52,654 nt of DNA from a virus (taxonomy: Duplodnaviria > Caudoviricetes). Where the stretch lies: positions 1 to 52,654 of IMG/VR virus record IMGVR_UViG_3300026488_000030; one strand, written 5' to 3'. The position numbers and the translations under genes are program-made. Below, piece after piece: positions 1 through 45,247 of this stretch (within the stretch, counting starts at the first letter, position 1; every line of letters begins with the position of its first letter). A model generated the notes under the pieces. The model saw only the letters and a program-made list of their open reading frames with translations. It made no database searches and was not told the DNA's origin.

Positions 1-952
1 AATGTGTAAGCATGGTTTCCACGCTTCCGCACATTGCGACCTGTCTGAAACTGTTGATTATTACCCCAATATCGCAAACAACGAATATGCACTAGTTGAC
101 ATCAATGTTGTTGATAGCACGGACGATAAAGTCGTTGGTGATAGAATTACAATTATCAAGAAGCTGGAAACATTAGACGAGTTAATTGAGTATGATAAAA
201 CAGGCAAATGGTGCGTTGAGTATACAAAACAGGTCCAATGTACCGATGCTGATATCAAACGTCTGGAAGACGCGGTTGTTGAAAAGGACAAGACAGGCGA
301 GTGGTGTTATAAGTTTGCAGCGTGTGTTGATAACATTGATATCAAACGTTTAGAAGATGCAGTTGTTGAAAAAGACGCAACAGGTGAATGGTGTTACTTG
401 TTTGCGAAATATGTCAAAAATGCAGATGCTGAACATCTTGAAAATGCTGTAATAGAAAAGGATAAGACAGGTAAATGGTCTTATCAATTTGCAGCATACA
501 TTGACAATATTAGTATTAAACGTTTAGAAGATGCAGTCGTTGAAAAGGATACAACAGGTGAATGGTGTTATTTGTTCGCCGAACATGTCAAAGATGCAGA
601 TATTAAACGATTGCAAGATATTGTTATTGAGAAAGATAAAACGGGACGACTATGTTTATATTTTGCAGAGTATATTAATAAGGCCGATATTAAACGTTTA
701 GAAGATGCAGTCGTTGAAAAGGACACGACAGGTGAATGGTGTTATTTGTTTGCGAGATGGGTTAAAGGTGCAAATATTGAACGTTTAGAAAATGCTGTAA
801 TTGAGAAAGATAAAACGGGCGAATGGTGTGTTGAATTTGCAGGATGGGTTAAAGGTGCAAATGTTGAACGTCTACGAAATATAGCTGAAGAAAAATTAAG
901 AAAAATACCAGGTAAAGCGCTGAATTTTTGGCGCTTAACTTTCGTTGATTAA
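1..952 (+). CDS. DUF7666-like N-domain + ~8 x 29-aa helical repeat protein (paralogue 1, 5'-truncated by window)
   Basis: CKHGFHASAHCDLSETVDYYP motif shared with 3 paralogues; 87-bp repeats (ggcgagtggtgt at 296, ggtgaatggtgt at 383), consensus GEWCxxFAxxVKGADIKRLEDAVIEKDKT. Confidence 0.8.
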   Translation, partial: MCKHGFHASAHCDLSETVDYYPNIANNEYALVDINVVDSTDDKVVGDRITIIKKLETLDELIEYDKTGKWCVEYTKQVQCTDADIKRLEDAVVEKDKTGEWCYKFAACVDNIDIKRLEDAVVEKDATGEWCYLFAKYVKNADAEHLENAVIEKDKTGKWSYQFAAYIDNISIKRLEDAVVEKDTTGEWCYLFAEHVKDADIKRLQDIVIEKDKTGRLCLYFAEYINKADIKRLEDAVVEKDTTGEWCYLFARWVKGANIERLENAVIEKDKTGEWCVEFAGWVKGANVERLRNIAEEKLRKIPGKALNFWRLTFVD

Positions 953-966
953 AAAGGAGGTTCACA

Positions 967-1860
967 ATGATAAGACTCAAATCCATTCAAACAGGTAGCA
1001 TAAATTTCGATTTAGATTGCGGTAAACAACATGAAAATTTCACTTACAAAGATACCACATTGTCTAAAGCTACTCTTATCTTAGGTGATGAAAGGAAATA
1101 TCAAATTTTGCAAAATGTGTATGATGCATTGTGCATAACTGATGATTTCTTACATATGAGAAGCTATACTTCTCACCTTTACTATTCGACTGTATCTTTA
1201 AACGGTGAAACTAAAGTTACATTTGCAAGTAATGGTCCCATTGAAATTAATATAAATAATAAAAAGGTTAGCTTATTAAATATACGAGCTAGATTTGCAT
1301 ATATCACAGATGATAATATAGATAACCATCTATACCTACTAGGTAGGCGTAGACGAGACTATGTTGCATATTTACAGAGCCTACTGAAAGACTTCGATCT
1401 CACTGTTACGTTTAGCTCCGATAATACTATCACTTGCAACGGCATAACATATGATAGTAGTATCAAGGAATTTATTAGAAGCAGTAGCAGAGTTAGAGGT
1501 ATACTAAAAGGTCTATTTGCTATCATTCATATGCAAGTAGAAGATGGAATAGTATTACTGGAAGATTTAGACAGTGGAATTGATTATGAAACACTTAAAG
1601 AGTTATGGGCGAGGTTCTTACGAACAGCAAATGGCAGAATCATAGCTACAAGTAATGATGCACAACTATTACAAAATAAAGATTTATTCAGTTTGTGCAA
1701 TATACAAATTTGTGATGGTAATGATGTGTACAAGCTGAGTGAAATAAACGGTATTGAAACGGTGGATGATATTTACAAAGCGTATATGAATGGTAAGTTA
1801 GGCGGAGTAACGGATTATACGACATTGAACTTTGATCAATTCATAGATGAAACTAAATGA
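967..1860 (+). CDS. degenerate AAA_21/RloA(AbiLi)-like ABC-type ATPase, probably inactive
   Basis: SD aaggagg; VLLEDLDSGID (Walker B/D-loop-like), IIATSND (H-switch position lacking His), C-terminal YMNGKLGGV; Walker A position reads LILGDERKY. Confidence 0.5.
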   Translation: MIRLKSIQTGSINFDLDCGKQHENFTYKDTTLSKATLILGDERKYQILQNVYDALCITDDFLHMRSYTSHLYYSTVSLNGETKVTFASNGPIEININNKKVSLLNIRARFAYITDDNIDNHLYLLGRRRRDYVAYLQSLLKDFDLTVTFSSDNTITCNGITYDSSIKEFIRSSSRVRGILKGLFAIIHMQVEDGIVLLEDLDSGIDYETLKELWARFLRTANGRIIATSNDAQLLQNKDLFSLCNIQICDGNDVYKLSEINGIETVDDIYKAYMNGKLGGVTDYTTLNFDQFIDETK

Positions 1861-1934
1861 GTAATTGAAAGCACCGATTTTGATATTAGTAATTTTCAGC
1901 ACTTCACTTTCATTGCTTAAAAGGAGGCGAACAT

Positions 1935-2399
1935 ATGATAGAGAAAATTATGGTTGACTATGTAAACCCAGACGCAAGTGAAGAACCATATGTAGCTCTC
2001 GTAAATGTCATGTGTAATGATGGCACTATATACCACCCAACCACATTAATAGAATTATTGCAATATGCTCTAAAAGCGGAGGGATTTGAACTGTTAGTTA
2101 CAGATGAAGGTGCTTCTATTGTTAAATGTTTGTCAAACAAAGGTCGATATGAAGTGTATAAACTACATGATGGTCAAGTCAATATGATCAAAAAATCAGT
2201 AGATTTACGGGGATTACAAAGGAGACAATTTGAAGAATATCTAAAAGAAGTTAAGAGTATAGTTTTTATTGCAAATGAAAACGACGCCAAAATAGTATTA
2301 TTTAGTGTTGAGTATGATCTTCACAAGATGAGCTATAAAGAAATGTCTTTGGCTAAATCAGAATATGAATTATCTCGGTATGGACTATCAGATACATAA
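1935..2399 (+). CDS. hypothetical protein, paralogue of 4307..4684
   Basis: SD aaggagg; shared motifs KIxVDYV, AEG(F/Y)(E/D)L, SIVKxLxNxGRY, MIKxxxDLxGL. Confidence 0.8.
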   Translation: MIEKIMVDYVNPDASEEPYVALVNVMCNDGTIYHPTTLIELLQYALKAEGFELLVTDEGASIVKCLSNKGRYEVYKLHDGQVNMIKKSVDLRGLQRRQFEEYLKEVKSIVFIANENDAKIVLFSVEYDLHKMSYKEMSLAKSEYELSRYGLSDT

Positions 2400-2422
2400 A
2401 TATAAGATGAAAGGAGTTAATT

Positions 2423-3616
2423 ATGATAACAGTCAAAGCATTTGACAAAAGACTTATATGCAATGGATTTCAATACGAGGTCGGCAGAACATACACAATG
2501 CCGACTGAAGAAGTCGCAATATGCGAACGTGGTTTCCACGCTTCTGCACATTGTGATCTATCGGAAACTCTCGACTATTACCCAGATGTTGTGAATAATG
2601 AATATGCACTAGTCGATATCAGTGTTGTCAGTAGCACAGATGATAAAGTCGTTGGTGATAAGATTACAATTATCAAGAAGTTGGAAACATTAGACGAGTT
2701 GATTATGTACGATAAGACTGGGGAATGGTGTTATGAGTTTGCAAAAAATACTAATGACATGAATACTATCAAACAATTACAAGACACTATTATCAAGAAT
2801 GATCGAACAGGTGAAATGAGTTATCGTTTCGCAAAAGATATCAAAGGGGCGGATATTGAACAGTTACAGAATTCTGTCATAGAGAAAGATAAAGACGGCA
2901 GATGGTGCTATCGTTTTGCGAATCATGTTAAAGGTGCGAACATTAAGCGTCTCGAAAATGCTGTAATGCAGAAAGATTTATCAGGTCAATGGTGTTATCA
3001 TTTTGCTAAATCTGTTAAAAACGCTAATACCAAACATCTTGAAAATGCAGTTATTGAAAAAGACCCATCTGGAATGTGGTGTTGTAATTTTGCAAAAGAT
3101 GTGAAAGGAGCAGATACTAGTAAGTTACAACAAGCAGTTATTCAAAAAGACAAAACTGGTTTGTGGTCCTACCAATTTGCTAGATTTATTAAGGGAGCAG
3201 ATATTAGTAAATTGCAACAAGAAGTCATTAAAAAAGATCAATCTGGCCAATGGTGCACGTGGTTTGCTTCAGGAGTTAAAGATGCAGATATTAAAGAACT
3301 AGAAGATGCTGTAATCAAAAAAGATTCATCAGGTGAGTGGTGTTATCATTTCGCAAGAGATGTAAGAGGAGCTGATATTGAACGACTCCAAAGTGAAGCG
3401 ATAAAGAAAGATGAGTCTGGTGAGTGGTGTTATTGGTTCGCTAGACTTATTGAGGGTGCAGATATTGAAAAGTTGCAAGAAGCGGTGATTCAAAAAGATT
3501 CATCAGGTGAGTGGTATTATCATTTCGCAAGAGATGTAAGAGGAGCTGATATTGAACGACTCCAAAGTGAAGCGATAAAGAAAGACCAGACTGGTCACTG
3601 GACAATGATGTTGTGA
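2423..3616 (+). CDS. DUF7666-like N-domain + 10 x 29-aa helical repeat protein (paralogue 2)
   Basis: MITVKAFDKRLICNGFQYEVGRTY...ICERGFHAS N-domain; 10 repeats; SD aaggag. Confidence 0.85.
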   Translation: MITVKAFDKRLICNGFQYEVGRTYTMPTEEVAICERGFHASAHCDLSETLDYYPDVVNNEYALVDISVVSSTDDKVVGDKITIIKKLETLDELIMYDKTGEWCYEFAKNTNDMNTIKQLQDTIIKNDRTGEMSYRFAKDIKGADIEQLQNSVIEKDKDGRWCYRFANHVKGANIKRLENAVMQKDLSGQWCYHFAKSVKNANTKHLENAVIEKDPSGMWCCNFAKDVKGADTSKLQQAVIQKDKTGLWSYQFARFIKGADISKLQQEVIKKDQSGQWCTWFASGVKDADIKELEDAVIKKDSSGEWCYHFARDVRGADIERLQSEAIKKDESGEWCYWFARLIEGADIEKLQEAVIQKDSSGEWYYHFARDVRGADIERLQSEAIKKDQTGHWTMML

Positions 3617-3687
3617 ATTACCATACCTGACTGGTATGTAATCCAAACTTGTGGTTAATATATCAAAGTAACACGAAGAGGTGTTAA

Positions 3688-4281
3688 ATGAGACAGTTGA
3701 CAATTGATGAAGTAAGGAAAATGAAAATTGCTGAGATTGGGATACAAATAACAACTAAATGCAATTTCAATTGCAAACACTGTTTCGTAAAGAATAAGCA
3801 TAATAATACTGAAGATATAGACGTGAAGAAACTTAAACAGATTCTAGATAACATAGAACTGTCAGAAGTGAAGAAAGTGCTAATTCTCGGTGGAGAGATT
3901 AGTCTAAAACCTACGCTTGTTAAAGCGGTATTAGAGTTATTGAAAACAAAATGTTCCAATGCAAACATCATTCTATTTTCGAATGGGTCTAACATCAAAC
4001 CACTTCTTAATATTGTAGAACCATTTAACAACTTGAAACTCGGTCTAGTTCTATCCGATACGAGTTATCACAGGATGAATAGTAATTACAAAAGTATTAA
4101 AGAAGAAGTTCTGCCACTAATACCAGACGGCGTTTTCAAGTTAGGTGTAGAGATTGTTGGCGATGAAAAACTGAAAATTTTCAGATCAGACTTGTCTGAC
4201 TTAAGTAAGGAAGATATGTCTGGTATAGGCATTAATGCTTTAGGTGATATCTATCCAGACAGCTGTATCATACCAGACTAA
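3688..4281 (+). CDS. short radical SAM protein
   Basis: CNFNCKHC (CxxxCxxC), GGE motif, FSNG; SD gaggtg. Confidence 0.8.
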   Translation: MRQLTIDEVRKMKIAEIGIQITTKCNFNCKHCFVKNKHNNTEDIDVKKLKQILDNIELSEVKKVLILGGEISLKPTLVKAVLELLKTKCSNANIILFSNGSNIKPLLNIVEPFNNLKLGLVLSDTSYHRMNSNYKSIKEEVLPLIPDGVFKLGVEIVGDEKLKIFRSDLSDLSKEDMSGIGINALGDIYPDSCIIPD

Positions 4282-4306
4282 ATCAAGTGAAAGGAGGTAG
4301 TAAATA

Positions 4307-4684
4307 GTGAAAAAAATTGTAGTCGATTACGTTGAAAGAGGCAATGAAATGATTGTAGCACATGTTAGTATTATACATGATGGTGGAACTGTGTATAACG
4401 CAGTGACATTATTGGATATGACACGGGAAGTTTTAAGAGCTGAGGGGTACGATTTGGAAATATCATATACTGGGAAAAGTATTGTTAAATATTTGCCAAA
4501 TGGAGGACGATATGATGTGACTGAGTTGAGGGATGATGAAATTAAAATGATTAAAGAAGCGCCGGATTTGCACGGGTTGTCCAAGGAACAGTTTGACAAG
4601 TATGTCGAGATGATTCAACAGATACTCAAACGTGCAGTTGAGAATGACAACGTATCAATGCGCAGAGTGGAATATGAACTGTAG
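4307..4684 (+). CDS. hypothetical protein, paralogue of 1935..2399
   Basis: SD aaggagg + GTG; motifs shared with 1935..2399. Confidence 0.8.
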   Translation: MKKIVVDYVERGNEMIVAHVSIIHDGGTVYNAVTLLDMTREVLRAEGYDLEISYTGKSIVKYLPNGGRYDVTELRDDEIKMIKEAPDLHGLSKEQFDKYVEMIQQILKRAVENDNVSMRRVEYEL

Positions 4685-4697
4685 TTAACACCCTAAC

Positions 4698-4725
4698 ACC
4701 CCCTGTAGACACAGGGGTAATTTTT
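4698..4725 (+). terminator. intrinsic terminator
   Basis: cccctgt-agac-acagggg followed by taattttt. Confidence 0.65.
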
Positions 4726-4745
4726 GTGTGAAAAAGGAGGTGTTC

Positions 4746-5711
4746 GTGATTACAGTAAAAGCATTCAACAGGGGTCTTAAATGTCACGGATTTCAATATC
4801 AAGTCGGTGAAACGTATACAATGCCCGCTGAAGAGGTTAAAATATGCAAGCGTGGCTTCCACGCTTCTGCACATTGTGATCTATCGGAAACCGTTGGATA
4901 TTACCCAGATGTTGCAAATAACGAATATGCACTAGTTGACATCAACGTTGTTGATAGCACCGACGATAAAGTCGTTGGTGATAAAATTACAATCATCAAG
5001 AAGCTGGAAACGTTAGACGAGTTAATTAAGTATGATAAAACTGGCAGATGGTGTTACTGGTTTGCAAGAGATAGTAGAAGTACTAATATTAAGCGATTAG
5101 AAGACGCTGTAATTGAAAAAGACCCGACAGGTGAATGGTGTGCATATTTTGCGATATATGTCAAAGGTGCTAATATTGGGTGTTTAGAGGAAGCAGTGAT
5201 AGAAAAGGATAAAACGGGAAAATGGTGTGTTGAATTTGCAGAATGGGTTAAAGATGCTAACATAGAACGTCTGCAAGATGCTGTAATCGAAAAGGATAAA
5301 ACTGGAAAACGGTGTACATATTTTGCAAAATGGATTAAAGATGCTGATATTAAGCGTCTCGAAGACGCTGTGATAGAAAAGGATAGTACAGGTGAATTAT
5401 GCATATATTTTGTACAAAATATTGACGATGCTAATATTAAGCGTTTAGAAGACGCAGTAATTGAAAAAGATTCAACGGGTGAATGGTGTACATATTTTGC
5501 TGCAAATATCAAAGGTGCTAATATCAAGCGTCTCGAAAACGCGGTGATTGAAAAGGATGAAACTGGGGAATGGTGTAAATATTTCGCGATATATGTCAGA
5601 GGTGCTGATATTGAGCGTTTAGAAGATGCTATAGCTGAAAAAGATGAAGTAGGCAAGTGGTATGAGTATTTTAGTGAACATGTCACCAGAGAGAATTACA
5701 ATTCGCAGTAG
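4746..5711 (+). CDS. DUF7666-like N-domain + 7-8 x 29-aa helical repeat protein (paralogue 3)
   Basis: SD aaggagg then GTG 4746 aligns with MITVKAF of the paralogues. Confidence 0.85.
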   Translation: MITVKAFNRGLKCHGFQYQVGETYTMPAEEVKICKRGFHASAHCDLSETVGYYPDVANNEYALVDINVVDSTDDKVVGDKITIIKKLETLDELIKYDKTGRWCYWFARDSRSTNIKRLEDAVIEKDPTGEWCAYFAIYVKGANIGCLEEAVIEKDKTGKWCVEFAEWVKDANIERLQDAVIEKDKTGKRCTYFAKWIKDADIKRLEDAVIEKDSTGELCIYFVQNIDDANIKRLEDAVIEKDSTGEWCTYFAANIKGANIKRLENAVIEKDETGEWCKYFAIYVRGADIERLEDAIAEKDEVGKWYEYFSEHVTRENYNSQ

Positions 5712-5952
5712 ATTATGTTCGATTCAACGTTGATACGTCCTATTGATAATCACATTGTAATTGAGTGAACTACCAATGAACGTTCACAGAGAGTTCAGTA
5801 TTTTGTAACCACTTTTCAACAGAAATCATTATAAATGAGAATTGCTTTTTCATATGTAGGAGGTGAAACATGTGACGGTTGTACAAAAGTCAATGCAAAT
5901 GGATTGTAGGATGTGTTCACAAAATTTTAAATTGAAGAAGGAGGTATTGCAA

Positions 5953-6243
5953 ATGGTACTTTTTGAACAGGTTTTAGAAAAACACGCTGGGAAAACGGTG
6001 AAAGATAGTGAATTGTTGAAGAAATTGTTGGAAGAAGCGCGCAAATTCAAAGACGGAGAATGGCATACAGAAGGTGTAAACGGTGAACCACAATACAATG
6101 TGGAACATGGCAATATAAGCATACGTTTATGCGTTAAGTGGCCAGATGTTAAGCAAATTCTAGAAGGTATTGACATAAAAGAATTAGTCTGGATGATCGA
6201 ACTGCAGGATGAAAATAGAAAGGTAATAGTCACAAAAGGCTAA
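5953..6243 (+). CDS. hypothetical protein (alternative GTG start at 5872)
   Basis: SD aaggagg before ATG 5953; followed by terminator. Confidence 0.65.
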   Translation: MVLFEQVLEKHAGKTVKDSELLKKLLEEARKFKDGEWHTEGVNGEPQYNVEHGNISIRLCVKWPDVKQILEGIDIKELVWMIELQDENRKVIVTKG

Positions 6244-6258
6244 GGTTAAAATGCGAAT

Positions 6259-6289
6259 GCGGACGGCTTAATAGTCGTCCGTTATTTTT
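6259..6289 (+). terminator. intrinsic terminator
   Basis: gcggacggc-ttaata-gtcgtccgt + tattttt. Confidence 0.75.
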
Positions 6290-6300
6290 GTCTATTTTTA

Positions 6301-6655
6301 TTTAGCGCGCGAATTGCGGCGGCTATTGCAAGTGGTTGAAGCTGTTACGCTAACAGCGCTTAAATCGCGTGTTAACATTCTCAGCTAAAGTCAGAATGCC
6401 ATACACGCGATAACACGCTCATATCGCAAACAGCTGAAGCTGTTACGCCAACAGCGAATAAATCGCGTGTTATCACCCATGGCTAAAATCAGAGTGCTAT
6501 ACGCAGAATAATTTGCACATATAGCGACGTAAACGCGCCTATATGCGACGATATGAGCGCCATCAATATGAAACATTGAATTCGACTGTATCGTTGCATA
6601 TACGCGAAGTATGTCGCTATTAGAGCCAGGTTATAGTATAGTTATTGTAGTGAGT
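6301..6655 (+). repeat. family A structured intergenic element, copy 1 (100-bp core 6521-6620)
   Basis: core atagcgacgtaaacgcgcctatatgcgacgata...tatgtcgctat shared with 7 other loci. Confidence 0.95.
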
Positions 6656-6746
6656 ATGTATTAGATTCAACAAATGCAAATAGAAATTATCTGATGATAG
6701 ATAGATTCCTTGTCTATTGAAGCAATAAGTTGAAAAGGAGGTGTTT

Positions 6747-7685
6747 ATGATTACAGTAAAAGCTTTTAACAAAGGTTTAATTTGCAACAGTTTTCAGTAT
6801 CAAGTTGGCAAAACGTATACAATGCCGGCTGAAGAAGTTAAAATATGTGAGCGTGGCTTCCACGCTTCTGCACATTGTGACCTGTCTGAAACTATTGAGT
6901 ATTACCCTAATGTTGCAAACAACGAATACGCATTGGTTGATATCAATGTTGTTGACAGTGTAGATGATAAGGTTGTTGGTGATAAAATTACAATCATCAA
7001 GAAACTAGAAACATTAGATGAGTTAATCCAGTACGATAAAACGGGTGAATGGTGTTATCAGTTCGCAAAAAGCAGTAGAAGCACCAACGTTAAATATTTA
7101 GAAGATGCTGTAGTTGAAAAAGATTCAACGGGTGAATGGTGTACATATTTTGCAGAATATATCAAAGGTGCAAACATTAAGCGATTAGAAGATGCAGTAA
7201 TAAAGAAAGACAAAATTGGTCAATGGTGCACATATTTTGCACAATGGGTCAAAGGTGTAGATATTAAGCGCCTGGAGTGTGCTATTGTTGAGAAAGATGA
7301 AACAGGAAGGTGGTGTGCAGCATTTGCAGCAAGTGACAAAAATGTTGATATCAAACGTTTTGAAGATTTAGTGATTGAGAGAGACGCAACAGGTGAGGCG
7401 TGTTACTGCTTTGCTGTTGACGTAAAAGGTGCTGACATTAAGCGATTAGAAGATGAAGTGATAGAAAAGGATAAAACAGGCCAGTGGTGTGCATATTTCG
7501 CAGAAACTGTTAAAGGTGCAGATATTAAGCGTCTCGAAGACGCTGTGATAGAAAAAGATAAAACAGGTGAATGGTGTACAATATTTGCATTGTTTGTCGA
7601 TAATGCAAATGTGGAACGTCTGAAAACTGCTGTAATGAAAAAAGACAAGGAGGGTAAATGGTGTAAATATTTCACTAAACATTGA
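6747..7685 (+). CDS. DUF7666-like N-domain + 7-8 x 29-aa helical repeat protein (paralogue 4)
   Basis: SD aaggaggtg then ATG 6747 (MITVKAF). Confidence 0.85.
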   Translation: MITVKAFNKGLICNSFQYQVGKTYTMPAEEVKICERGFHASAHCDLSETIEYYPNVANNEYALVDINVVDSVDDKVVGDKITIIKKLETLDELIQYDKTGEWCYQFAKSSRSTNVKYLEDAVVEKDSTGEWCTYFAEYIKGANIKRLEDAVIKKDKIGQWCTYFAQWVKGVDIKRLECAIVEKDETGRWCAAFAASDKNVDIKRFEDLVIERDATGEACYCFAVDVKGADIKRLEDEVIEKDKTGQWCAYFAETVKGADIKRLEDAVIEKDKTGEWCTIFALFVDNANVERLKTAVMKKDKEGKWCKYFTKH

Positions 7686-7708
7686 ATGTTAGATAACACG
7701 AGTTCAAT

Positions 7709-7746
7709 GGCAAGGGTCTAGTGTGGACTCTTGCCTTATTTTATTT
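7709..7746 (+). terminator. intrinsic terminator ending the + strand block
   Basis: ggcaagggtcta-gtg-tggactcttgcc + ttattttattt. Confidence 0.75.
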
Positions 7747-7747
7747 G

Positions 7748-8035
7748 TTAAGCGCGCAAATTGCGATGATTATTGACGCTAGGTTTACCTGTGACTTAGA
7801 AAGTCGCAGTGTGATATGCGGTTCACTCTCCGCATATCACAAACAGCTGAAGCTGTTACGCTACCAGCGCCTAAACACGCGCATATAGCGACGTAAACGC
7901 GCCTATATGCGACGATATGAGCGCCATCAATATAAAACATTGAATTCGACTATATCGTTTAATATACGCGAAGTATGTCGCTATTAAAGCCAGGTTGCGG
8001 ATATAGTTACTATAGTGAGTGTATGTTATAATTAG
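7748..8035 (+). repeat. family A element, copy 2 (core 7885-7984)
   Basis: near-identical 100-bp core; tandem with copy 3 (305-bp period). Confidence 0.95.
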
Positions 8036-8069
8036 TTGTAACTGACGCGATTGCCAAAATCGAGATACC

Positions 8070-8335
8070 ACTAGCGCTTAAACATGCGCATATCGCAAAC
8101 AGCTGAAGCTGTTACGCTACCACACGATAAATCGCGTGTTATCATCCGCAACTGAAGTTGGAATGCTATACGCAGAATAATCTGCGCATATAGCGACGTA
8201 AACGCGCCTATATGCGACGATATGAGCACCAGCAATATAAAACATTGAATTTGGCTGTATCGTTTAATATACGCGAAGTATGTCGCTATTAGAGCCAGGT
8301 TGCGGATATAGTTACTGTAGTGATTATTAGTTACA
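8070..8335 (+). repeat. family A element, copy 3 (core 8190-8289)
   Basis: core plus aacagc-tgaa-gctgtt and cgcaga-ataa-tctgcg hairpins. Confidence 0.95.
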
Positions 8336-8347
8336 AAAATTTTAGAC

Positions 8348-8373
8348 AAAAATAACCCGCCGGGGAGGCGGGT
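8348..8373 (-). terminator. intrinsic terminator after tail tube gene
   Basis: acccgcc/ggcgggt stem with A-run on the + side (U-tail on -). Confidence 0.7.
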
Positions 8374-8426
8374 GGGGAGGAGCACATGCAGTAATTTTAT
8401 GTGAACGCAACAAGCGAATTACCAGC

Positions 8427-9224
8427 TTACTCTGCTGGTTTTCTCTCAGGCTCATTAGCCTGAACAGGACTATAAGATTTGCTACCATGTAAGAATGAAC
8501 TGAAGTTCTCATATGTCTTCATGTAGCTTTTTGCATTGAGCATTGCGAGAACAGTCTTCTCAACGTCAGCGTCAAATCTATTTATTGGAGCCCCATCAAA
8601 GGAGAATGTTACACTGTACTGGATGCTGTCGTTACCTGTTAGGTTGTTTGTTATTGATTCTTCAGGAACGTTTGTTGGGAATACACCAGCGAATGCATAG
8701 ATGTCTTCAATGTCATCAGCAGTTACCTGTTGACCGTCTGCTCCAGTTGGTTTCATTAATGCTACGTAGCATTTGCCTTTGTAGTTGGTAGGAATGAACT
8801 CTTTACCTTTTAGTGGAGATACACCAAGGATTGGGTCGAATAGACCTGCCCAGGTTCTGAGAATAGTCAAGAGTGGCATGTTCTGGTATTCTCTGAATGT
8901 TAATGTGAATTGTCTTGTGATTACTTTAGATGTTGGAAAAGAAGCGCCGACTTGACCGAGACCTACAGTATCGACTTTGTTGATTGTATATCCAGGTGGT
9001 GTGAATGATTCACATGTAGAATGTAACCATTCTTTAGCTGTTGATGTTGTTTTGCCAAAAAGAAGTGGTGGAAGTTCGAAGAAAACCTGAAAGTAACCAG
9101 ATATATATGGTTGAGTGTCTCTGTCTCCGCCAATGTTTCTGGTTAAAGCATCTGGAGACGTTCTACCTTTAGTTGAAACGTCTGTAAAAATTGAATTAAG
9201 TGCTTCTATGTATGTGTTAGCCAT
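8427..9224 (-). CDS. tail tube protein
   Basis: directly downstream of sheath; CESFTPPG, FTLTFREY, FAGVFPTNVP, YSVTFSFDG resemble T4 gp19-like tubes. Confidence 0.8.
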   Translation of the reverse strand: MANTYIEALNSIFTDVSTKGRTSPDALTRNIGGDRDTQPYISGYFQVFFELPPLLFGKTTSTAKEWLHSTCESFTPPGYTINKVDTVGLGQVGASFPTSKVITRQFTLTFREYQNMPLLTILRTWAGLFDPILGVSPLKGKEFIPTNYKGKCYVALMKPTGADGQQVTADDIEDIYAFAGVFPTNVPEESITNNLTGNDSIQYSVTFSFDGAPINRFDADVEKTVLAMLNAKSYMKTYENFSSFLHGSKSYSPVQANEPERKPAE

Positions 9225-9324
9225 TGTTACCTCCGTTGAAAGTTTAAAGGATTTAATAGGAAAAGCGCGCGAAATTGCACAGGTGGCGAAATCGCGCGCT
9301 AATCTATCTTAATGAACCTATTGC

Positions 9325-19652: not shown

Positions 19653-19850
19653 TTTAGCGCGCAAAATGCGGTGGTTATTACAAGTGGCTGAAAACTGTTA
19701 GCCAATAGCGCTTAAACATGCGCATATAGCGACGTAAACGCGCCTATATGCGACGATATGAGCGTCATCAATATAAAACATTGAATTCGACTGTATCGTC
19801 GCGTATATGCGAAGTATGTCGCTATTAGAGCTAGGTTGTTGATTGGACTC
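19653..19850 (+). repeat. family A element, copy 4 (core 19726-19825)
   Basis: tttagcgcgc start module + 100-bp core. Confidence 0.95.
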
Positions 19851-23256: not shown

Positions 23257-23585
23257 TTTAGCGCGCGAATTGCGATGGTTATTGCAAGTGGTTGGAGTTG
23301 TTACGCTAATGGCGTTTAAACTCGCGCATATCACAAACAGCTGAAGCTGTTACGCTACCACGCGATAAATCGCGTGTTATCATCCGCAACTGAAGTTGGA
23401 ATGCTATGCGCAGAATAATCTGCGCATATAGCGACGTAAACGCGCCTATATGCAACGATATGAGCGCCATCAATATAAAACATTGATTTCGACTGTATCG
23501 TCGCGTATACGCAAAATATGTCGCTATTAGAGCCAGGTTGCGGATATAGTTACTGTAGTAGATGTATGTTACAATTAGTTGTAGT
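23257..23585 (+). repeat. family A element, copy 5 (core 23428-23527)
   Basis: full module set; tandem with copy 6 (354-bp period). Confidence 0.95.
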
Positions 23586-23609: not shown

Positions 23610-23920
23610 ACCGCCAGTGCTTAAACACACGCATATCACTCGTGGCTAAAGTCAGAGTGCTATGCGCAGAATAATCTGCGCATATCGCAAACAGTTGAAA
23701 CTGTTACGCTACCACGCGATAAATCGCGTGTTATCATCCGCAACTGAAGTTGGAATGCTATGCGCAGAATAATCTGCGCATATAGCGACGTAAACGCGGT
23801 TATATGCGACGATATGAGCGCCATCAATATAAAACATTGAATTCGACTGTATCGTCGCGTATACGCAAAGTATGTCGCTATTAGAGCCAGGTTGCGGATA
23901 TAGTTACGGTCGATAGTATT
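23610..23920 (+). repeat. family A element, copy 6 (core 23782-23881)
   Basis: core plus duplicated tatgcgcaga-ataa-tctgcgcata hairpin. Confidence 0.95.
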
Positions 23921-23988
23921 AGTTAATGAAAATTGAACATTGCTGATAGAAATTATTGCAATGAATACTTCAAAGGAGGTGATGTAAA

Positions 23989-30694: not shown

Positions 30695-30935
30695 ATACCA
30701 CTCGTGACTAAAGTCAGAATGCTATGAGCGCTTAAATCTGCGCATATTGCAAACAGCTGAAGCTGTTACGCTACCACGCGATAAATCGCGTGTTATAGCG
30801 ACGTAAACGCGCCTATATGCGACGATATGAGCGCCATCAATATAAAACATTGATTTCGACTGTATCGTCGCGTATACGCGAAATATGTCGCTATTAGAGC
30901 CAGGTTGCGGATATAGTTACTGTCGTAGATATATG
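30695..30935 (+). repeat. family A element, copy 7 (core 30795-30894)
   Basis: 100-bp core; lacks the middle atccgcaac module. Confidence 0.95.
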
Positions 30936-31045
30936 TTGAATTCAACATTTACGAATAGAAATTATTCAACCAGAACCTTCCAGTTATTGACTTTAATTGT
31001 CTGGTAATAGAAATTATAATACAAATCTCTTATGGAGGAGGCTTT

Positions 31046-44914: not shown

Positions 44915-45215
44915 TTTAGCGCGCATACTGCAAACGGCTGAACTGTTACATCAATGGTGCTTAAATCGCGTGTTATCATTCTCAGCTAAAGTTGAAATGC
45001 TATGGGCGCTCAAACACGCTCATATCACAAACAGCTAAAGCTGTTACGCTACCACGCGATAAATCGCGTGTTATAGCGACGTAAACGCGGTTATATGCGA
45101 CGATATGAGCACCATCAATATAAAACATTGAATTCGACTGTATCGTCGCGTATACGCGAAGTATGTCGCTATTAGAGCCAGGTTGCGGATATAGTTACTG
45201 TAGTGAGTATATGTT
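44915..45215 (+). repeat. family A element, copy 8 (core 45073-45172)
   Basis: tttagcgcgc start module + 100-bp core. Confidence 0.95.
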
Positions 45216-45217
45216 AG

Positions 45218-45247
45218 AAAAAAAGGAGAAACCATTGTGGTTTCTCC
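45218..45247 (-). terminator. intrinsic terminator
   Basis: ggagaaacca-ttg-tggtttctcc with A-run. Confidence 0.8.

Follow-up and report, generated by a model that had tools for sequence, protein, structure and literature searches.

The first 7.7 kb of the IMG/VR record of an uncultivated phage, IMGVR_UViG_3300026488_000030 (52,654 bases; hereafter ‘the window’, i.e. the whole stretch of DNA that was analysed) encode four paralogous proteins, A to D, each of which joins an N-terminal DUF7666 domain (‘the head’) to a tail of 29-residue helical repeats. We interpret these proteins as a diversifying two-part family, in which a constant head would be combined with a recognition surface for proteins or peptides, formed by the first helix of each repeat (helix A), and which would serve as a repertoire in phage–host or phage–phage conflict; we give this interpretation about an even chance of being correct. 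It draws on the architecture of the proteins, the pattern of variability within their repeats, a contrast in selection between variable and scaffold sites, arrays of family genes that recur in relatives, and an allele swap. The head, as the constant part, would probably contribute a shared effector or docking activity, and the paralogues would differ in the partner to which they deliver that head or which they sequester. Host or rival-phage proteins engaged in defence or counter-defence would be the likeliest partners.

The four proteins are encoded by plus-strand open reading frames (ORFs) of 316 (A), 397 (B), 327 (C), and 314 (D) amino acids. The Pfam domain DUF7666 (PF24703) is N-terminal in all four, with E-values of 1.3e-20 to 6.1e-20 for B, C, and D (74.1, 72.3, and 71.9 bits, respectively). 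The A gene is cut by the contig end, and its match is therefore partial (E 1e-06, 29.5 bits, from profile position 33 only); all four matches in the record nonetheless exceed the gathering cut-off of 27 bits. Tandem Repeats Finder delineates arrays of 87 nt (29 codons) in all four genes, and a repeat hidden Markov model (HMM) counts eight, ten, seven, and eight units in A, B, C, and D (33 in total). An initial annotation, prepared from the bare sequence, had described four paralogues with a DUF7666-like N-terminal domain and 7–10 repeats of 29 residues; Pfam, the repeat HMM, and Tandem Repeats Finder agree on this architecture. AGGAGG-like Shine–Dalgarno (SD) motifs mark the starts of B (2423), C (4746), and D (6747), the ORFs of C and D opening slightly upstream (at 4728 and 6741, respectively), and all three proteins then start with M-ITVKAF. 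Long antisense ORFs (e.g. 5054–5686 on the minus strand) are shadows of the repeats.

The repeat has the consensus GEWCxxFAxxVKGADIKRLEDAVIEKDKT. Across the thirty-one window units that are in register, G1 and F7 are invariant, and entropy reaches 3.20 bits at position 6, 3.14 at position 10, 3.06 at position 9, 2.84 at position 28, and 2.17 at position 5; variability at position 28 had gone unmentioned in the initial annotation. In a wider set of 305 ungapped units (297 unique) from the window and 29 related metagenomic loci—units that come from a few related metagenomes and are not independent—the four highest entropies belong to positions 10 (3.17 bits), 6 (3.10), 9 (3.09), and 5 (2.73). 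Aromatic residues (Y, W, F, or H) make up 52 per cent of the residues at position 5, 52 per cent at position 6, and 47 per cent at position 10, compared with 10.5 per cent expected from base composition, and their share does not exceed 2 per cent at six further positions that vary and are mostly charged (2, 12, 17, 21, 25, and 28). Position 9 holds charged residues in 70 per cent of units. The residues at positions 5, 6, 9, and 10 occur in 214 distinct combinations among the 297 units, and the six commonest combinations account for 10 per cent. The consensus and di-residues listed initially, the free variation at these four positions over a stable scaffold, and the aromatic richness claimed for them are all recovered here, the last at positions 5, 6, and 10. 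A rule by which position 5 or 6 must be aromatic was considered and rejected (81 per cent observed vs. 77 per cent expected under independence). Neighbouring repeats correlate only position-for-position (phi 0.42 for 5–5 and 0.52 for 9–9), which could reflect shared descent or side-by-side stacking, either of which would produce this pattern.

AlphaFold2, run on the single sequence of protein C, predicts strictly alternating helices of nine and eleven residues, i.e. a two-helix alpha-solenoid, with a predicted local distance difference test (pLDDT) score per ten-residue block of about 87–97 over most of the repeat region. Helix A comprises repeat positions 2–10 and helix B positions 16–26. Since positions 2–10 are placed in one helix, the i, i+1, i+4, i+5 spacing of positions 5, 6, 9, and 10 puts them on one helix face, as had been proposed from the sequence. 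On a helical wheel, W3, C4, F7, A8, and V11 would lie on one side of helix A and positions 2, 5, 6, 9, and 10 on the other; we take G1, W3, C4, F7, A8, V11, I16, L19, V23, I24, K26, and D27 to be core and turns, and helical periodicity, considered by itself, would leave positions 5, 6, 9, and 10 exposed at the surface. Pointing away from the core, these four positions should form a stripe along a rigid solenoid, and we infer that this hypervariable, Tyr/Trp-rich stripe is a surface for binding proteins or peptides, which would be the nature of its targets.

The repeat has no match in Pfam, NCBIfam, PHROGs, or PADLOC other than spurious short matches and small PHROGs of unknown function; ankyrin, HEAT, and TPR repeats of Pfam were found neither in the four proteins nor in twelve relatives at E ≤ 0.01; and phmmer returned no match of B to PDB sequences at E ≤ 10. 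A Foldseek search of the solenoid model against the PDB likewise gave nothing at E ≤ 0.001, and a search of the ESM Atlas was uninformative (top score 0.85). The best VIA-align matches of the solenoid (Z 9.7, 9.3, and 8.8) are generic solenoids, designed repeat proteins, and PUF/HEAT proteins, the third being a designed peptide-binding repeat protein (7ue2, 18 per cent identity); values under about 13 count as background when helical repeats are compared.

The initial annotation had read this architecture as a natural binder repertoire and had offered, as one mode of action, a modular nucleic-acid recognition code. The architecture and the binder repertoire fit the fold, the variability, the selection contrast, and the arrays, whereas the nucleic-acid code is not supported. 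Under that explanation, each repeat would read one RNA or DNA base through positions 5, 6, 9, and 10, in the manner of PUF, PPR, and TALE proteins. The window proteins, like those, carry a few variable residues on one helix of each repeat, PUF proteins are weak structural neighbours of the solenoid (Foldseek probability 0.96, TM 0.35; Puf4p at VIA-align Z 8.3), and the aromatic and K/R residues could in principle stack on or contact bases. However, the proteins are acidic (isoelectric points of 4.95–5.47, net charges of −9 to −16), and the variable face, with +0.96 and −1.15 charges per repeat by residue count, is hence not basic. The diversity of four-site combinations is far from a small discrete code, the PUF score falls in the background range of helical repeats, and the unit is a two-helix repeat of 29 residues, whereas PUF, PPR, and TALE repeats are 34–36 residues long. 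We therefore regard a nucleic-acid reader as highly improbable.

Selection acts differently on the two parts of the proteins. Between window paralogues, the ratio of nonsynonymous to synonymous substitution rates (dN/dS, omega) of the head is 0.03–0.07 at a dS of 0.5–2.4, and all copies are therefore old and maintained. The nearest-neighbour identity of window repeats at scaffold codons is 67–85 per cent, with two exceptions: the degenerate first unit of B (52 per cent) and the recent duplicate B304/B362 (95 per cent). A first estimate of omega from closest pairs was biased, the pairs having been picked on the same sites as those used for dS, and was replaced by a split-half design, in which one half of the scaffold codons serves to pick the pairs and the other half to measure dS. 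In the closest pairs thus defined, omega at the variable sites is 1.73 (bootstrap 95 per cent interval 1.14–2.78, 38 pairs) and 1.20 (0.74–1.85, 31 pairs), compared with 0.45 and 0.19 for the scaffold. The rate at the variable sites is thus neutral or somewhat higher and exceeds that of the scaffold several-fold, which is the contrast that a repertoire of binders had been expected to display; clear positive selection is not proven. Estimates of dN/dS on 29-codon units are noisy, and recombination between repeats blurs the pairings.

Genes of this kind recur beyond the window. A word-indexed protein search, in which 8,000 candidates were scored, found 166 proteins at E ≤ 0.001, and about 28 of these are metagenomic proteins that combine a DUF7666 head with the 29-residue repeat. 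IMG/VR holds only one other contig (L005) with a head-plus-repeat gene, present there as a single copy after a primase gene. A metagenome scan yielded 496 relatives, from which 77 loci were kept. Twelve of the thirty closest metagenome loci contain at least two family ORFs (the second being cut by the contig end in several), and the number of repeats per gene ranges from two to fifteen in these thirty loci; arrays and variable repeat number are therefore properties of the family and not of the window contig alone.

Comparison with two of these loci indicates how the repertoire may turn over. Locus L072 aligns with window positions 485–3093; past about 3270, the alignment falls apart. Identity is 92–100 per cent over 485–2477 (the end of A, a gene encoding 297 amino acids, the gene X1, and the first 55 nt or so of B), with a dip to 73–86 per cent around the intergenic gap at 1785–1977; it is about 66–75 per cent over the next 600 nt or so of B and lower still beyond. 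The gene in the position of B encodes 304 amino acids in L072, vs. 397 in the window. This is an allele replacement of B, and its breakpoint falls within the conserved 5′ portion of the head. The A orthologue of L072 differs in six codons, four of them with nonsynonymous changes (at repeat positions 9, 12, 13, and 14) and two with synonymous ones. In L066, the repeats of orthologous genes differ in number and order, as judged from best-match tables; the third head-repeat gene of that locus is followed by a 336-residue ORF (L066 4711–5718, cut by the locus end), which may be a TnpB/OrfB-type transposon protein. New specificities could arise through point changes, through whole-allele swaps, and through repeats being gained, lost, or shuffled. 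Diversification by a diversity-generating retroelement was also considered, but a reverse transcriptase (RVT_1) was not found in the 52.6 kb, the record being about 48 per cent complete and a template/variable-repeat pair not having been looked for.

The repeat also occurs in bacteria, where the relatives are headless: their repeats, of the form AEYIYxFAxxVKGANIxKLEDAII, are flanked by distinct N- and C-terminal regions. Among species-representative genomes, a scan found 56 loci, of which 41 belong, by their record titles, to metagenome-assembled genomes (MAGs) of ‘uncultured Bacilli’ and the remainder to Clostridia, ‘Tenericutes’, and similar groups. Two to four repeat genes stand side by side in 20 of the 56 loci, with 2–20 repeat hits per ORF. 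Among the 695 units of this bacterial branch, variability peaks at position 6; Tyr occupies position 5 in 74 per cent of them, and D or N predominates at position 10. Positions 5 and 10 are thus less variable there, so that hypervariability at all four sites is most pronounced in the phage branch. The headless arrays of uncultured gut Bacilli and ‘Tenericutes’-type MAGs (L008–L063) constitute an unnamed, expanded bacterial family in their own right. One headless relative (P0049) is fused to DUF1963, a fusion that was considered as a link to the structure 2aua (see below) and rejected, since DUF1963 matches 1pv5 instead.

A simpler explanation of the repeats is that they form a spacer or rod, i.e. 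a structural extension whose length matters and whose variable positions are unconstrained surface residues. Many unrelated repeat tails occur behind DUF7666 heads (e.g. pentapeptide or nonapeptide rods), repeat number varies from two to fifteen, omega at the variable sites is near 1 in most bins, and neither the recent duplicate B304/B362 nor the A orthologue of L072 has a burst of change at those sites. Several of these observations weigh against recognition by the stripe. All-pairs dN/dS within the window is saturated (proportion of synonymous differences, pS, 0.60–0.73) and was discarded; omega at the variable sites is 0.6–1.1 in the more distant bins; the excess of omega over 1 is marginal, as 1 lies within one of the two bootstrap intervals; B304/B362, the only recent duplicate of the window, has identical variable residues in both copies; and just one of the six changes between A and its L072 orthologue is at a variable site, although six are too few to weigh. 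Additionally, positions 5, 6, and 10 border the hydrophobic face and could partly serve repeat-to-repeat packing, and the modelled solenoid is without a specific structural relative, its best Z of 9.7 being within the helical-repeat background. The spacer explanation, on the other hand, fails to account for the aromatic enrichment, because neutral drift predicts 10.5 per cent aromatic residues and would not be expected to yield 47–52 per cent at three sites; nor does it sit well with an omega of 1.2–1.7 in the closest pairs or with the lower variability of positions 5 and 10 in the bacterial branch, which makes the variability specific to the phage branch. On balance, we consider a mere spacer unlikely, though worth keeping in mind, and continue to favour a recognition surface.

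The head is widespread. A HMMER search with DUF7666 against 1.84 billion cluster representatives returned 1,309 proteins at E ≤ 0.001, and a Pfam scan of 53 of these identified the domain in 51, nearly always at the N-terminus. The tails recognized in the scanned proteins are Pentapeptide_2 (four), MORN_2 (three), and collagen (one), others consisting of unrecognized short Gly/Ser-rich repeats followed by a small conserved C-terminal end; an LRR_5 tail occurs once, in a separate DUF7666 set. Phage proteins with this head (PHROG 4433/14105; e.g. Salmonella phage ES18 gp53-like and Rheinheimera phage Barba28A ‘Pentapeptide’) therefore share with the window proteins an architecture of head, then repeat tail, but their tails are pentapeptide, Gly/Ser-rich, MORN-variant, LRR_5, or collagen-like instead of a 29-residue two-helix repeat. 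No paper naming ‘DUF7666’ was found by full-text literature search. Conserved residues of the head are K11, F13, C19, F22, G27, T29, Y30, C40, G43, F44, H45, Y58, Y59, K81, and I89; Cys occupies position 47 in 52 of 70 sequences, and Glu or Asp occupies position 71 in 53 of 69. The window subfamily has Ser at position 47 and a Cys three residues later, at position 50 (GFHASAHC), whereas in other DUF7666 proteins the Cys after GFHA is at position 47. This moved Cys suggests a Cys/His metal site in the head.

The AlphaFold2 model of the head, computed from a 70-sequence alignment (pLDDT 94.7), is a compact beta-rich domain of the first 100 residues or so. A VIA-align comparison with 48,161 chains gave 68 matches at Z ≥ 2 and three at Z ≥ 5, with 2aua (Z 7.0, root-mean-square deviation 3.6, 86 residues aligned), Arr (Z 5.7), and PARP13 (Z 5.0) at the top. 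Judged by their titles, about 41 of the 50 matches listed are chains of the ADP-ribosyltransferase (ART) superfamily, although a VIA-align Z below 8 can reflect a common arrangement. Passages of two papers place 2aua, as ‘BC2332-like’, in the SCOP ADP-ribosylation superfamily and record that ProFunc matched it to the catalytic site of diphtheria toxin (PMC3000352, PMC3024214). The model of the head resembles chains of this superfamily (SCOP d.166: BC2332-like 2aua, Arr, Tpt1/KptA, PARPs, and diphtheria-like toxins), from which it differs in its small size (about 95 residues), in a Cys/His cluster that is unusual in ARTs, and in having no sequence or profile match to them. An architectural analogue exists in tankyrase, which joins target-recruiting ankyrin repeats to an ART domain.

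A second likeness of the head is to RIIB of phage T4. Foldseek searches of BFVD, a set of predicted viral structures, with the head gave twelve matches at E ≤ 0.001, mostly DUF7666 proteins; the 50 rows listed also include 11 annotated as RIIB of T4-like phages (E 7e-4 to 2e-2, TMq 0.58–0.69), as well as four DUF4116 proteins and three ankyrin proteins of giant viruses. An hhalign comparison of the DUF7666 alignment with 20 RIIB sequences covers 84 columns and residues 211–309 of T4 RIIB (rIIB, L141 2466–3404) at E 0.0063 and a probability of 6 per cent, and in it the invariant K, G, C-x2-G-x-H-x-C, Y, and K of DUF7666 and RIIB coincide. T4 RIIB (PF26926), whose C-terminal domain has a predicted fold resembling the window head, has an N-terminal helix-turn-helix (HTH) region and no repeat tail, whereas the window proteins consist of head and repeats only. 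Membership of the RIIB C-terminal domain in the same superfamily as DUF7666 is likely but unproven, because the hhalign probability is only 6 per cent. In passages of one paper, RIIB is described as being required to overcome RexAB exclusion, by a mechanism that is unclear, and as being toxic when expressed in Escherichia coli (PMC10312443). By analogy, the likeness of the head to the RIIB C-terminal domain suggests, but only suggests, an anti-defence role for the window proteins.

Taken further, these two likenesses would make the family one of ‘addressed enzymes’, in which an ART-like, RIIB-related head is steered to host or defence proteins by a programmable solenoid, as a recombining repertoire. 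If this were true, changing the residues at positions 5, 6, 9, and 10 would retarget the activity, and the RIIB C-terminal domain would gain a biochemical role linked to nicotinamide adenine dinucleotide (NAD+) or ADP-ribose. We infer such an enzymatic activity of the head with great reserve and deem the full scenario decidedly improbable. The fold matches are middling (Z at most 7.0), and Foldseek found nothing in the PDB for the head at E ≤ 0.001; no ART family is among the Pfam matches listed for the 70 DUF7666 members (25 of the 45 families matched at E ≤ 10); the head profile retrieved one unrelated chain only (E 4.8) from the PDB sequences; the hhalign score for RIIB is as low as stated above; and C19, C40, H45, and C47 (C50 in the window subfamily) may simply be a zinc site. 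NAD+ salvage genes were not among the ORFs that were Pfam-scanned (10 in one scan and 29 in a second).

Hypervariable scaffolds of the ankyrin, leucine-rich repeat, and HEAT-like types are a route to binders that is used by many organisms and by protein engineers. As commonly described, ankyrin repeats, including designed ankyrin repeat proteins (DARPins), and the HEAT-like alphaRep share with the window proteins a two-helix repeat, a stable scaffold, and variability at i, i+1, i+4, and i+5; the window repeat differs in its period of 29 residues, in having no ANK or HEAT match in Pfam, and in forming a natural phage multigene family on an effector-like head. According to BFVD annotations, a design of head-like domain plus helical repeats recurs in DUF4116 proteins of giant viruses, but the DUF4116 HMM (PF13475), run over the entire record, found nothing at E ≤ 10. 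The family thus adds a compact two-helix repeat, new to Pfam and NCBIfam and with a clearly defined variable Tyr/Trp-rich face, that is used in phage multigene arrays and, headless, in uncultured gut Bacilli. If binding were confirmed, it could provide protein engineers with a small natural scaffold for binders, and the links of the head to the RIIB C-terminal domain and to ART folds offer a testable lead on the function of DUF7666 and RIIB.

The genes between the paralogues (Table 1) bear on a further explanation. The 297-residue protein encoded after A has no Pfam or PHROG match and weakly resembles AbiLi and AriA defence ATPases over the C-terminal half of these proteins only; within the accessory block, its gene may have a defence-like or decoy function. 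The radical-SAM protein encoded after B has prokaryotic viperin as its best PADLOC match (E 5.1e-13, first 105 residues or so only), and its NCBIfam scores are far under every cut-off. With such neighbours, the family could be a phage-borne defence or exclusion sensor, in which the solenoid recognizes proteins of rival phages and the head, perhaps with the neighbouring products, triggers an abortive response; this explanation shares the idea of binding with ours and reverses the role. The same repeat forms tandem arrays in bacteria (at least two adjacent genes in the 20 loci mentioned above), and known defence proteins use solenoid sensor domains; passages of one paper propose that the variable solenoid-like C-terminal domain of Tmn sets trigger specificity (PMC13001434). 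The neighbours’ matches are, however, partial and weak, none of the four family proteins matches a PADLOC model, the bacterial repeat proteins lack the DUF7666 head, and the sole functional lead for the head, RIIB, is a counter-defence protein. A sensor therefore seems to us quite unlikely, and we retain a repertoire of recognition surfaces on a constant head as the preferred explanation.

Table 1. Features of the window, in order of position.
Feature	Position	Strand	Description
Paralogue A	2–952	+	5′ end cut by contig end; rear part of DUF7666 head at nt 2–202; eight repeat units at about 203–904
AbiLi/AriA-like gene	967–1860	+	297 aa; PADLOC AbiLi E 7.2e-10, AriA (PARIS) E 1.7e-4
X1	1935–2399	+	154 aa; no known family; directly upstream of B
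Paralogue B	2423–3616	+	397 aa; head at 2423–2719; ten repeats at 2720–3592 and a partial unit; SD and ATG start
Recombination breakpoint (approximate)	2470–2485	+	Inside 5′ end of B; identity drop vs. L072
Radical-SAM gene	3688–4281	+	197 aa; matches N-terminal half of fold only
X2	4307–4684	+	125 aa; no known family; directly upstream of C
Paralogue C	4746–5711	+	SD-supported GTG start; head to 5042; seven repeats at 5043–5651 and a partial unit
126-aa gene	5863–6243	+	No known family; followed by terminator-like hairpin at 6259–6282
Paralogue D	6747–7685	+	SD-supported ATG start; head to 7043; seven full repeats at 7044–7652 and a partial unit
Intergenic element copies	6300–6740, 7833–8028, 8081–8327, 19719–19837, 23257–23569, 23645–23956, 30708–30965, 44926–45218	+	

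X1 and X2 are paralogous (41 per cent identity, E 5e-31), and L072 likewise has an X homologue (1397–1915) upstream of its gene in the position of B. As X1 and X2 are related and each stands upstream of a family gene, an X gene and a head-repeat gene together look like a duplicated two-gene cassette. The 126-residue protein was compared with X1 and X2 as a possible relative and is unrelated. Terminator-like hairpins follow the gene for this protein and that for D.

The first 7.7 kb form a plus-strand block, and beyond about 8.4 kb the ORFs are mostly on the minus strand and include genes for tail tube, tail sheath, large terminase, DnaB-like helicase, lytic tail protein, and prohead protease; in 9325–52654, the names given by PHROGs are sheath, terminase, DnaB-like helicase, and lytic tail protein. 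The window is a single IMG/VR record with a CheckV completeness of about 48 per cent. Megablast of window positions 1–8000 against phage records gave no match, and tblastn against the same kind of records gave matches to the head only (28–31 per cent coverage, 11 records), from which the phage appears to be very distant from described phages. In 9325–52654, 22 of the 29 ORFs scanned had no Pfam match at E ≤ 1e-4.

The window also contains a dispersed intergenic element of about 130–250 nt, present in at least eight copies, always between genes and always in plus orientation, despite the mostly minus-strand genes beyond 8.4 kb. It has no Rfam match in window positions 1–9300 and may be a promoter, a regulatory element, or an iteron-like element. 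The eight core copies have a mean column identity of 87 per cent, which is above that of the coding paralogues.

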